A DNA stretch of 13,032 nt from a virus (lineage: Duplodnaviria; Heunggongvirae; Uroviricota; Caudoviricetes). Shown here piece by piece: positions 3,001 to 6,000 of the stretch. Made by a program: the position numbers. Where the stretch lies: the IMG/VR virus record IMGVR_UViG_2541047174_000010, positions 1 through 13,032 of that record. One strand, 5' to 3'. Positions within the stretch are counted from its first letter, which is position 1. Every line of letters begins with the position of its first letter.

Positions 3001-6000
3001 CGTCAGCGGTGGGGACGGGATACTGGCTACTGCAGTTGCTGGACAAAGTCTCCCCATCCCAGTGGGTGGCAATAGGCGTATTGGGTAGCTTGGTGTTTGG
3101 CTTGCTGACGTATCTGACAAACCTTTATTTCAAGATTAAAGAAGATAAGCGTAAGGCTGCGAGAGGTGAATAATGTCGCCATCATTACGCAAGGCTGTTG
3201 CTGCTGCTATTGGTGGTGGGGCTGCTGCCATAGCGTCTGTGCTCATCACTGGTCCGAGTGGTGACGATGGCCTGGAAGGTGTCAGCTACATACCATACGA
3301 AGATATCGTTGGCGTATGGACTGTATGTCACGGACACACCGGAAAAGACATCATTCCCGGTAAAACGTATACCGAAGCAGAATGCAAAGCCCTCCTGAAT
3401 AAAGACCTTGCCACGGTCGCCAGACAAATTAACCCGTACATCAAAGTCGATATACCGGAAACAACGCGCGGCGCTCTTTACTCGTTCGTTTACAACGTGG
3501 GCGCTGGTAATTTCAGAACATCGACGCTTCTTCGCAAAATAAACCAGGGTGATATCAAAGGCGCATGTGATCAGCTACGGCGCTGGACATACGCTGGCGG
3601 TAAGCAATGGAAAGGGCTGATGACTCGCCGCGAGATTGAGCGTGAAGTCTGTTTGTGGGGGCAACAATGAGCAGAGTAACCGCGATTATCTCCGCTCTGG
3701 TTATCTGCATCATCGTCTGCCAGTCATGGGCGGTTAATCATTACCGTGATAACGCCATCGCCTATAAAGAACAGCGTGATAAAAAAGTCAGTGAGCTGAA
3801 GCAGGCGACCGCCACCATTACTGACATGCAGCAGCGCCAGCGTGCTGCTGATGCACTCGATGCTAAATACACGAAGGAGTTAGCTGATGCGAAAGCTAAA
3901 AATGATGCTCTTCGGCGCAAGCTTGATAATGGTGGTCGGGTGTTCGTCAAAGGAAAATGCCCTGTGCCATCCTCAGACGAAACCTCCAGCGCCTCCGGCA
4001 TGGGCAATGATGCCACCGTCGAACTCTCTCCAGTTGCTGGACGAAACGTTCTCGGTATCCGGGACGGAATTATCCGCGACCAAACAGCACTGAGAACGCT
4101 TCAGGAATACATCAGGACGCAATGCCTTCGATGATAGCGATAATTTTACTCATCATCCTTCACATCTGGCTCTGTAGACAGGGTGGTGCTCACTTCTGGA
4201 GTGAATCATGGTTAAACATCTCATTGCTGATGCTTGATATTGAGCATCTGGCGCGCGGTAAGGGGCTGCGTTGAGATAAGAGCCAGTCATTAAAAATACC
4301 TGGATTTAGCCTCGCATTCGCGGGGCTTTTTTATTGCCATTACAAAAGCCACTCCCTACAGAGTGGCTTTGATAATGGCTTATACCCTACACGGGATAAC
4401 TTAACTGATATCCCTTTTAACGGATAAAGGTATTCAAGCCTGACACATCATGCGCTGTATCGTCGCTGTATTCCCGCATTAACCATGACCGTAGCCCGAC
4501 GGGGAACTCCTTCTGCGCGAGTGTGCGGGAATAATCAAAAACGATGCACACCGGGTTTTTACCGCGCTAATGATTCGCGGGTTTGTCCCTCATGCTCGCC
4601 AGTCCTGTGCGGGGGTGGAAGAAACAGGACACTCACACAGATTCTTGTGGGTCGATGCTATTCCTTTCTGGATTATCCCGATGCCATTCATGCAAGGGCT
4701 GTATCAGACGTTCGTCATGGCTTTCAGGCTGACGGCTCCTCCCGGTGGGGTGGCCTGCCACGGGGCGGGAGCGTCGCGGAAAAAGGCTAGTTTTTGCATT
4801 TTTATCGGCCACCATCATCTTTGCATCTTATTGATTATTAATGGTTATTTGTTTTTTGTATGTCGAATTGAGTGTTTTTTGTTCGACATCGAACGCGTTT
4901 TCTTAAAGTTGTTCGCACGATGCATGTTTAAAGCTCTCCGGAGGAAATATGGATCATGAGTTGAAAAACCTGGTGCTGAATATTAATCAACTGGCGGCTT
5001 TATCTGGTCTGCACCGCCAGACTGTCGTGGCAAGACTGAAAAACATTCGTCCCGCTGGTGGACATGACAAACTCAAGCTATACCGGTTGACCGATATTCT
5101 GACTGAATTTATGGGGTTACCACCGCCGGTTGCTGAGGGCGAAATGGATCCACATGAACGCAAAGCCTGGTATCAGTCTGAACGTGAGCGTCTTAAGTTC
5201 GAACAGGAAACGGCACAACTCATTCCGGCCAGTGATGTCAGACGGGAGTTTGCCATCTGGGCAAAAGCGGTCGTGCAGGTGCTGGAGACATTACCGGATA
5301 TTCTGGAACGTGACTGTGGTCTGCAGCCTGCCGCTGTGAGCCGTGTTCAGTCCATTATTGATGATCTGCGCGATCAGATAGCCCTGCGGGTGACCGAAGC
5401 AGGTGCGGATGATGAGGAGGAATTACAGCAGGAGGAGTAATGCTGAATCAGGAAACCGCAAAGGCAGCACGAACCGATTCAGGTTATATCCTTCGCGCAC
5501 CGAGACGAATGCGGGTTGCTGATGCCGTTGCTCAGTATATGCGGGTGCCCATGGGGGCCGGGAACTCAGTCCCGTGGGATCCGCTGGTGGCACCGTATGT
5601 TATTGAGCCGATGAACTGCCTGGCCTCGCGTGAATACGACGCAGTGATATTTGTTGGCCCGGCACGAACCGGCAAGACTATCGGCCTGATTGACGGCTGG
5701 GTGATTTACAACGTGATTTGCGATCCTGCGGATATGCTGATCATTCAGATGACGGAGGAAAAAGCCCGCGAACACTCCAAAAAACGACTCGCCAGAACGT
5801 TTCGCGTCAGCCCGGAAGTGGTCAGTCGCCTGAGTCCGAACAAAAATGACAACAACGTTTATGACAGAACATTCCTTGCTGGCAACTACCTGAAAATCGG
5901 CTGGCCGTCAGTCAATATCATGTCCTCATCAGATTATAAATGCGTGGCGCTGACGGATTATGACCGTTTTCCGGAAGATATTGATGGCGAGGGGGATGCC

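Follow-up and report, generated by a model that had tools for sequence, protein, structure and literature searches.

Related phage RNAs and the locus under study

The put sites of phage HK022, which has no N, are approximately 70 nucleotides (nt) long, fold into two stem-loops and lie just downstream of PL and PR. Here we describe an element of approximately 180 nt, located at positions 4451 to 4630 on the + strand of a 13,032-nt stretch of tailed-virus DNA (IMG/VR record IMGVR_UViG_2541047174_000010; the whole stretch is referred to below as the window), which corresponds to prophage Sp3 of Escherichia coli O157:H7 strain Sakai. Like the put RNAs, the element is predicted to be a structured RNA in a lambdoid phage operon, with conserved loops and no protein product, and both could act at any distance on downstream sequence. 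However, with approximately 180 nt, 8 helices and a pseudoknot, the element is unlike put; furthermore, it is found kilobases into the late operon, after Rz, and coexists with Q. Given these differences in position and architecture, we do not assign it to the class of put-type antiterminators.

Viral exoribonuclease-resistant RNAs (xrRNAs), repetitive extragenic palindromic (REP) elements and the sib/tI site of lambda offer a second comparison. Like the element, they are compact folds, often pseudoknotted with conserved tertiary nucleotides, residing in untranslated stretches, and they determine which part of a long transcript survives. By contrast, xrRNAs block the 5'-3' exonuclease Xrn1 in eukaryotic hosts, whereas bacterial stabilizers are usually simple hairpins; that the element might resist PNPase, RNase II or RNase R we can only infer. 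The leader pseudoknot of T4 gene 32 is likewise an H-type pseudoknot in a phage mRNA beside A-rich single-stranded RNA, but operators of this type lie close ahead of the gene that they control by repression, at a constant distance, whereas 113 to 1990 nt separate the element from the next gene.

Two further systems share the genomic setting. The small RNAs (sRNAs) of the late region, STnc100/PasD, AgvB, AsxR, EcOnc13/32 and StxS, are, like the element, non-coding and carried by lambdoid prophages in many copies per O157 genome. They are encoded between Q/PR' and the holin gene, are 50 to 250 nt long with ends of their own and a Rho-independent terminator, and bind Hfq (PMC4104026; bioRxiv 10.64898/2026.05.13.724894). 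The element, by contrast, is located after Rz, lacks a terminator and is not recognized by any of their Rfam models. Finally, the bor moron of lambda occupies the interval between Rz and cos, as does the element and as a first-pass annotation of the window had correctly stated for lambda; bor, however, is a minus-strand lipoprotein gene that is absent from the window, and in lambda the two lie side by side.

A conserved element between the lysis and packaging genes

The 814 nt surrounding the interval flagged in the first-pass annotation (4135 to 4733) match many E. coli O157:H7 chromosomes with 100% identity, and the late genes of the window follow one another on the + strand in the order holin, lysozyme, Rz, flagged interval, small terminase and large terminase. 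A BLAST comparison of the region with 50,697 phage records divided it into mosaic pieces, with 4135 to 4335 being common to close relatives only, 4330 to 4428 being additionally present in P22-like phages (94% to 97% identity) and approximately 4451 to 4630 being present in 502 records, including Shiga toxin (Stx) 1 and 2 phages, ES18-type Salmonella phages and lambda. The first-pass annotation had proposed such a search as a check for conservation as non-coding sequence, and this is what was found for the last piece, in which no open reading frame (ORF) is conserved. The lambda copy is located at 46864 to 47037, between bor and lambdap78, and that of E. coli K-12 in DLP12, between borD and ybcV. 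Among 5,426 complete E. coli genomes, 4,633 (85%) carry the element, at 12,209 places in total and in up to 11 copies per genome (nine in an O157 strain), almost always without annotation. A scan of IMG/VR with an exact motif retrieved 120 loci, and a second motif 30 further loci from two divergent lineages. In the window, a covariance model of the element has a single match (4447 to 4634, 228 bits, E 1e-60).

The conservation begins and ends abruptly, with at least 10 left flanks and at least 7 unrelated right flanks surrounding the same 180 nt. Across approximately 130 occurrences the gene order is invariant: lysozyme and Rz on the + strand, optionally bor on the minus strand and KilA and Ant on the + strand, then the element, optionally p78 on the minus strand, and TerS/Nu1 and TerL on the + strand. 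The neighboring terminase genes belong to at least 3 unrelated types, and the spacing is free, ranging from approximately 0 to 1374 nt between the Rz stop codon and the element (in BP-4795, the element directly follows Rz) and from 113 to 1990 nt between the element and terS.

The element was found in one host clade, Escherichia/Shigella/Salmonella. A survey of taxonomic breadth with one genome per species yielded true matches in Escherichia only, most of the other matches being lambda control DNA in unrelated assemblies. Lambda-type copies were seen in assemblies under the names of Pseudomonas, Cohnella, Brevibacillus, Flavobacterium and other genera (loci L128 to L163), on contigs of approximately 48.4 kb or approximately 3.5 kb, which almost certainly represent the whole lambda genome and the 3.6-kb Nanopore control amplicon, respectively, left in public assemblies.

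Variation in the element preserves eight helices, including those of a pseudoknot

Eight helices (P1, P2, P2b, P3, P5, P4, P6 and P7) were defined by hand from the variants. Four of them make up a 5' domain (4456 to 4548, + strand): P1 (4456-4463/4541-4548), P2 (4469-4479/4523-4533), in which 5 pairs are changed on both sides, and P2b (4490-4494/4513-4517) and P3 (4495-4497/4502-4504), with 2 such pairs each. The internal loops of this domain, AUUAAC, GAGUGU and AAUAAUCAAAAAC, are conserved. Further downstream, P5 (4553-4555/4587-4589) encloses P4 (4562-4566/4576-4580), a variable hairpin in which 4 of 5 pairs are changed on both sides and which differs in sequence from lineage to lineage but is always retained. 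P3 is deleted in the P13803 type; its loss and the resequencing of P4 in some types are as expected of peripheral hairpins.

The 3' part (4595 to 4630) is occupied by an H-type pseudoknot composed of P7 (5 bp; 4595-4599/4609-4613; 2 pairs changed on both sides) and P6 (7 bp; 4602-4608/4624-4630; double changes at 5 of 7 pairs). The order of the helices, the covariation in both of them and the sterically feasible loops all conform to this class: loop 1 has 2 to 3 nt (2 in the window), loop 2 has 0 to 1 nt and loop 3 corresponds to the conserved 10-nt sequence GGUGGAAGAA at 4614 to 4623. P7 occurs as CUCGC/GCGGG, GUCGC/GCGAU, GCCGC/GCGGU and GCCAG/CUGGC, and, although it was left out of the covariance model, 96.1% of its cells are paired. 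In the ES18 type, UCUCGAU/AUCGAGA replaces the GUCCUGU/ACAGGAC of the window in P6, changing 5 of 7 pairs, and 3 pairs of P2 are likewise replaced by complementary ones, whereas in the divergent L175 type P2 reads UAUCUCCACA/UGUGGAGAUA and pairs are flipped in P2b and P3. P2 contains the 10-bp inverted repeat which the first-pass annotation had placed at 4469/4524; it is perfect in the window (4469-4478/4524-4533), the compensatory changes in other phages support a real helix, and it is the only one of the flagged repeats that falls inside the element.

In a MAFFT alignment of 61 variants, 95.9% of the cells in the proposed helices can pair, compared with 35% to 64% when the partners are slid, and 15 pairs are changed on both sides, a count reached by 0 of 500 shuffles. 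The covariance model was built from this alignment, and the model-based alignment of 72 distinct sequences, which favors the modelled helices, gave 97.2% paired cells versus 33% to 64% with slid partners, 20 of 47 pairs changed on both sides versus 12.2 +/- 1.4 in shuffles, and a covariation score of 0.222 versus 0.110. A test for covariation across relatives, which the first-pass annotation had called for, is positive for the element.

The variation also discriminates between the strands. RNAalifold predicts a consensus of -31.9 kcal/mol for the + strand versus -11.1 kcal/mol for the minus strand, and G.U cells outnumber A.C cells by 307 to 34, with G.U being the commonest state at three pairs; neither the minus strand nor duplex DNA therefore explains the pattern. 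The late operon, from holin through lysozyme and Rz to terminase, is likewise read in the + sense. Collectively, these comparisons show that 4451 to 4630 is a free-standing conserved non-coding element in which sequence variation preserves eight helices, including those of an H-type pseudoknot, and, judging from sequence comparison, the element very probably functions as a structured + strand RNA. Of the options raised in the first-pass annotation, a structured non-coding RNA is strongly supported by the covariation, albeit for a narrower and shifted segment.

The same data bear on a function at the level of DNA, either as a homology "linker" for recombination of lysis and packaging modules or as a single-stranded + strand structure in packaging, injection or recombination. 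The element always lies at the module junction beside cos/pac, two copies bracket a moron in one locus (L012), G.T pairs are possible in single-stranded DNA too, and lambda escape mutants have been reported to recombine with Qin in the region of the element (bioRxiv 10.64898/2026.09.04.749371). However, a recombination linker requires identity rather than changes that compensate to preserve pairing, double-stranded DNA would give no bias of 307 to 34 for G.T over A.C, the covariation of the pseudoknot has no obvious rationale in DNA, and a shared packaging signal is unlikely next to terminases from unrelated families. We therefore consider a DNA-level function very unlikely. Natural rearrangements at the element are nonetheless on record: the two copies in L012 (5053 to 5239 and 6003 to 6189) flank a moron ORF of approximately 200 amino acids (aa), one copy (L117; 4154 to 4307 and 5555 to 5656) is interrupted in its P4 region by an insertion of approximately 1.25 kb, and another copy (L033; 7211 to 7418) is truncated, with loss of the 3' domain. 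The element may thus serve as a hotspot of recombination or insertion.

P2 invites one further comparison. Its arms, UUCCCGC...GCGGG(G/A)AUAAUC, resemble the E. coli/Salmonella type I-E repeat of clustered regularly interspaced short palindromic repeats (CRISPR), which has a CCCCGC/GCGGGG stem and a 3' AUAAACCG handle; with their flanks (4469-4479/4523-4535), the arms read GUAUUCCCGC...GCGGGAAUAAUC, or GCGGGGAUAA in Stx-phage types. An RNA anti-CRISPR mimicking such a repeat was nevertheless rejected, because ES18 (UCAUCGC/GCAAUGA) and L175 (UCUCCAC/GUGGAGA) replace those very bases while keeping the pairing, and we treat the resemblance as coincidental.

The element is not a gene, a gene remnant or a known RNA

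No coding signature was detected in the element, in which the variable columns are distributed over the three phases as 19/20/16. Its conserved core contains indels of 1 and 2 nt between variants, each reading frame is interrupted by stop codons in some variants, and the sole candidate start codon, an ATG at 4450, gives way to GTG, CTG, CCG or CAG in others. A Pfam search returned no match. Translations do match PHROGs 17397 and 6954 ("Rz-like spanin"), and the DNA of the element is annotated as "Rz-like spanin", "regulatory protein" or "hypothetical protein" in VT2phi_272, phi315, P13803 and other records; these matches probably reflect artefactual ORF calls over a non-coding RNA.

Such calls speak for a remnant, be it a decayed moron, a broken coding gene, or the promoter or terminator region serving bor and lambdap78, both on the minus strand; in addition, in lambda and 933W-like phages the element precedes the bor start by 109 to 176 nt and directly adjoins the lambdap78 stop codon. 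It is, however, equally conserved where both bor and p78 are missing (the window, BP-4795, P13803 and ES18), it shows neither codon periodicity nor a conserved frame or start codon, its indels break the frame, a search of both strands revealed no sigma-70-like promoter, and the wobble pattern excludes the minus strand. A minus-strand RNA and a bor promoter are ruled out on the same grounds, namely the wobble asymmetry, the lack of a promoter and the bor-free contexts, and a remnant of any of these kinds is scarcely credible. The first-pass annotation would have given up its proposal had homologs revealed a remnant of a known gene; we looked for this, with a negative outcome. Its own suggestion of a decayed moron can apply at most to the 5' part of the interval, that is, to an ORF with a terminator (4122 to 4333) and to the segment shared with P22-like phages (4336 to 4428), but not to the core, because the core is intact beside bor in lambda and 933W-like phages.

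The element also appears to be new among described RNAs. A scan of the whole window against Rfam 15 at gathering thresholds returned STnc100 at 1 to 167 alone, scans of the window, ES18-type and lambda copies at E<=10 gave chance-level matches of which none overlapped the element consistently, and ARAGORN found no tRNA or transfer-messenger RNA. The literature, searched by sequence string and by topic, yielded no description, although the element could be among the more than 10,000 candidates in a bulk catalogue of phage RNAs (PMC10690425). Described candidates lie elsewhere: EcOnc04 is the 5' leader of ECs_2189; PasA, PasC and PasD are upstream of the holin gene; PasB differs in context and carries a terminator; and svsR is located at cI. 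Membership in the class of Hfq-dependent prophage sRNAs was rejected in view of the missing promoter-like site and 3' terminator, and the EcOnc sRNAs of Sp3 found in the accessible part of the O157 data lie upstream of the holin gene, at 2483 to 2533 and 2725 to 2813. Thus, from sequence comparison, the element is apparently an undescribed pseudoknotted RNA, supported by covariation and present in most E. coli genomes as well as in lambda and the Stx phages.

A possible RNA-fate boundary in the late transcript

No sigma-70-like promoter was found inside or beside the element on either strand, the only promoter-like site in 3900 to 5100 being outside it, and its 3' end, ACAGGAC, is followed by variable, non-U-rich sequence that does not resemble a terminator. 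Without a promoter or terminator of its own, the element is probably part of the Q-antiterminated late transcript, within which it likely acts. The free spacing to neighboring genes makes a translational operator or a classical riboswitch unlikely. Position provides a further clue: cos/pac comes shortly after the long untranslated spacer that holds the element, and the pseudoknot occupies the 3' edge of the conserved block. We therefore favor an RNA-fate boundary over other roles.

We propose that the element would act in cis at the RNA level, marking the boundary between lysis and packaging/morphogenesis functions across the untranslated spacer. The 3'-terminal pseudoknot, together with the compact 5' domain, could form a plug against 3'-to-5' exonucleases, which would shield the upstream lysis mRNA after cleavage downstream or after run-off at a cos site cut by terminase; the element could also supply a protected 5' end for the downstream RNA. 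To our best explanation as a whole we assign a probability of about 0.4; within it, a boundary of RNA fate that acts in cis in the late mRNA, through decay or processing, is a tentative suggestion that may well prove wrong.

Several observations weigh against this explanation. The aligned sequences are related and partly recombinant, so that the counts of changed pairs are not independent events and the shuffle controls overstate independence; the folding energy of the single sequence is ordinary (z -1.2); in the lambda copy, P7 is weak and P1 contains a mismatch; and a 933W-like hybrid has a G.G mismatch in P2. The split and truncated natural copies (L117 and L033) imply that the element is dispensable for a prophage. 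In lambda, 1.46 kb with two morons separate the element from cos. Furthermore, invariant loops would not be required of a mere exonuclease barrier, for which simple hairpins are usually enough.

The sequences AUUAAC, GAGUGU, AAUAAUCAA.AACGAU and GAAGAAA in loops and junctions are invariant across three deep lineages. Such constancy of the internal loops hints at a particular tertiary fold or at recognition by a factor of the host. In the latter case, the RNA could work co-transcriptionally on the RNA polymerase that made it, similar to put or directed against Rho, or as a stable fragment, set free from the late transcript, that sequesters a host protein, for example Hfq, CsrA, an RNase or a defence sensor. 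Besides the invariant loops, such a function is favored by the association of one host clade with several unrelated terminase and lysis modules, which points to a host rather than a phage partner, by the compatibility of distance-independent action with the 113 to 1990 nt to terS, and by A-rich single strands, which may resemble A-R-N sites of Hfq. On the other hand, the element is not among the Hfq-bound RNAs listed for Sp3, from uninduced cultures, in the accessible part of the Sakai table, it has neither the promoter nor the terminator expected of a typical trans-acting sRNA, and antitermination is already supplied by Q. We regard host-factor binding as rather doubtful. Base-pairing in trans received little support: within the window, complements of the conserved loops are chance-like or purine-codon matches, plus a weak one, CTTATTGATTATT at 4827 to 4839 (+), between the cosN-like site described below and terS, which could pair at 11 of its 13 positions with AAUAAUCAAAAAC, a conserved single-stranded part of the element. 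Matches of this kind (<=2 mismatches) are expected 0.2 times per window; three were found, one of which is the element's own site.

The two-domain architecture, the pseudoknot, the invariant junction nucleotides and the sharp, self-contained boundaries would also suit a catalytic or ligand-sensing RNA, such as a self-cleaving ribozyme between the lysis and packaging segments or a riboswitch acting through Rho or RNA decay instead of a classical expression platform; small ribozymes are frequently associated with phages. However, three divergent variants matched no Rfam 15 family even at E<=10, there is neither a conserved expression platform nor a fixed distance to a gene, and covariation does not support switch-like alternative helices: in UCAU/GUGG and CACCGG/CCKGUG, pairing is lost wherever the sequence varies. 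These helices, together with the spacing of 113 to 1990 nt and the at least 7 unrelated right flanks, led us to reject a classical riboswitch or an attenuator, and a catalytic or sensing RNA in general is improbable.

Sequences flanking the element and other features of the window

The remaining inverted repeats named in the first-pass annotation lie 5' of the element and, like that in P2, are all present where it had placed them, although not all are equally strong. The terminator assigned to 4309 to 4332 is indeed an intrinsic terminator on the + strand (4308 to 4333), with an 8-bp G+C-rich stem and a 4-nt loop (4308 to 4327) and a T-run continuing to 4333 (dG -14.7, z -2.7). The hairpin at 4345 to 4370 is the core of a longer, interrupted one with 19-nt arms (4336-4354/4361-4379, + strand), in which a 2x2 internal loop separates 7 bp from a further 10 bp. 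The latter has a dG of -26.8 kcal/mol on the + and -30.1 kcal/mol on the minus strand (z -8.8 and -7.5, respectively), with 0 of 200 shuffles folding equally well, and is a canonical terminator on neither strand. In phage 2851 (L003, 3001 to 3040) it is preserved through A-T to C-G and C-G to A-T changes and one U.G, which pairs on the + strand only. It may be a processing or stability hairpin, looks like a putative RNase III-type substrate, and could share a processing landscape with the element. In the P22-like phage BIS08P22, the segment homologous to 4330 to 4428 stops 12 nt upstream of a DUF2560 gene. Whereas the terminator, the 4336 to 4379 hairpin and the repeat at 4469/4524 exceed chance, the hairpin proposed at 4393 to 4418 does not: it belongs to a weak inverted repeat (4380 to 4427), is 74% complementary and has z scores of -1.5 to -1.9. 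An alternative pairing involving the T-tract of the terminator does exist (4324-4336 with 4338-4350) but cannot act in antitermination, because it is located downstream of the terminator. Given this 3' position, and since the alternative helices within the element break where its sequence varies, the terminator/antiterminator switch considered in the first-pass annotation is not supported.

The description of the interval as free of ORFs holds in substance but not mechanically. ORFs of at least 60 aa occur on both strands, namely 101 aa at 4485 to 4790 (+), 129 aa at 4570 to 4959 (+) and 61 aa at 4633 to 4818 (minus), but none is conserved. An ORF of 50 aa at 4122 to 4274 (+), outside the RNA element, overlaps the Rz stop codon and occupies the first 140 nt of the flagged interval; it is annotated by PGAP/RefSeq as WP_001139679.1, matches PHROG 11822 (E 4.5e-35) and has a hydrophobic N-terminus. 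Of 11 variants, 10 preserve its frame, and the variable columns are distributed over the codon positions as 5/2/9, a pattern weakly suggestive of coding. It may be a real small membrane protein.

The placement of the interval between Rz and cos is plausible: on the strength of sequence resemblance to the lambda and DLP12 cos junctions, a cosN-like site, ACG|GGGCGGGAGCGT|CGCGG, can be proposed at 4760 to 4779 (+), 130 nt past the element, where ACG-GGGCGGGAGCGT-CGCGG mirrors the ACG-GGGCGGCGACCT-CGCGG junction of lambda. In cases without an intervening moron, the end of the element is 133 nt (window) or 57 nt (L012) away from cosN. The flanking genes, all on the + strand, encode a holin (2958 to 3173), a lysozyme (3173 to 3670), Rz with Rz1 nested inside (3655 to 4134), a DUF1441 small terminase (4949 to 5440) and a GpA-type large terminase (5440 to 7542).

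The Sp3 prophage is probably defective although the RNA element is intact, with the portal gene being split or marked as a pseudogene in Sakai (ECs_0827; window approximately 9.5 to 11.1 kb) and bet being a pseudogene (ECs_0810). Other sRNA loci are found upstream. STnc100 has a full-length Rfam match at 1 to 167 (+), with 100.7 bits versus a gathering score of 47; this copy adjoins the lpxR moron, upstream of ylcG and Q, and corresponds to the PasD/STnc100 neighborhood (bioRxiv 10.64898/2026.05.13.724894). Two Hfq-bound sRNAs, EcOnc13 (approximately 187 nt; 2483 to 2533, + strand) and EcOnc32 (approximately 112 nt; 2725 to 2813, minus strand), were placed by coordinate offset from Sakai and are the convergent sRNA pair of Tree et al. 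2014; EcOnc32 falls within the annotated minus-strand ORF ECs_0817.

Implications

Few viruses have been studied as thoroughly as lambda and the Stx phages, whose late operon governs toxin release, lysis and virion assembly. If the element is real, late gene expression has an additional post-transcriptional control component, which the lambda copy (46864 to 47037) makes accessible to standard genetics. The spurious ORF calls and two PHROG families would then be corrected, and the covariance model would aid annotation of the lysis/packaging boundary in lambdoid prophages. A bolder possibility, which we consider unlikely, is that the element represents a new class of functional RNA overlooked in lambda, either a phage counterpart of exoribonuclease-resistant RNAs or a self-cleaving, ligand-sensing or host-factor-sensing RNA that would split or gate the late polycistron; if so, almost all E. 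coli would harbor multiple copies.

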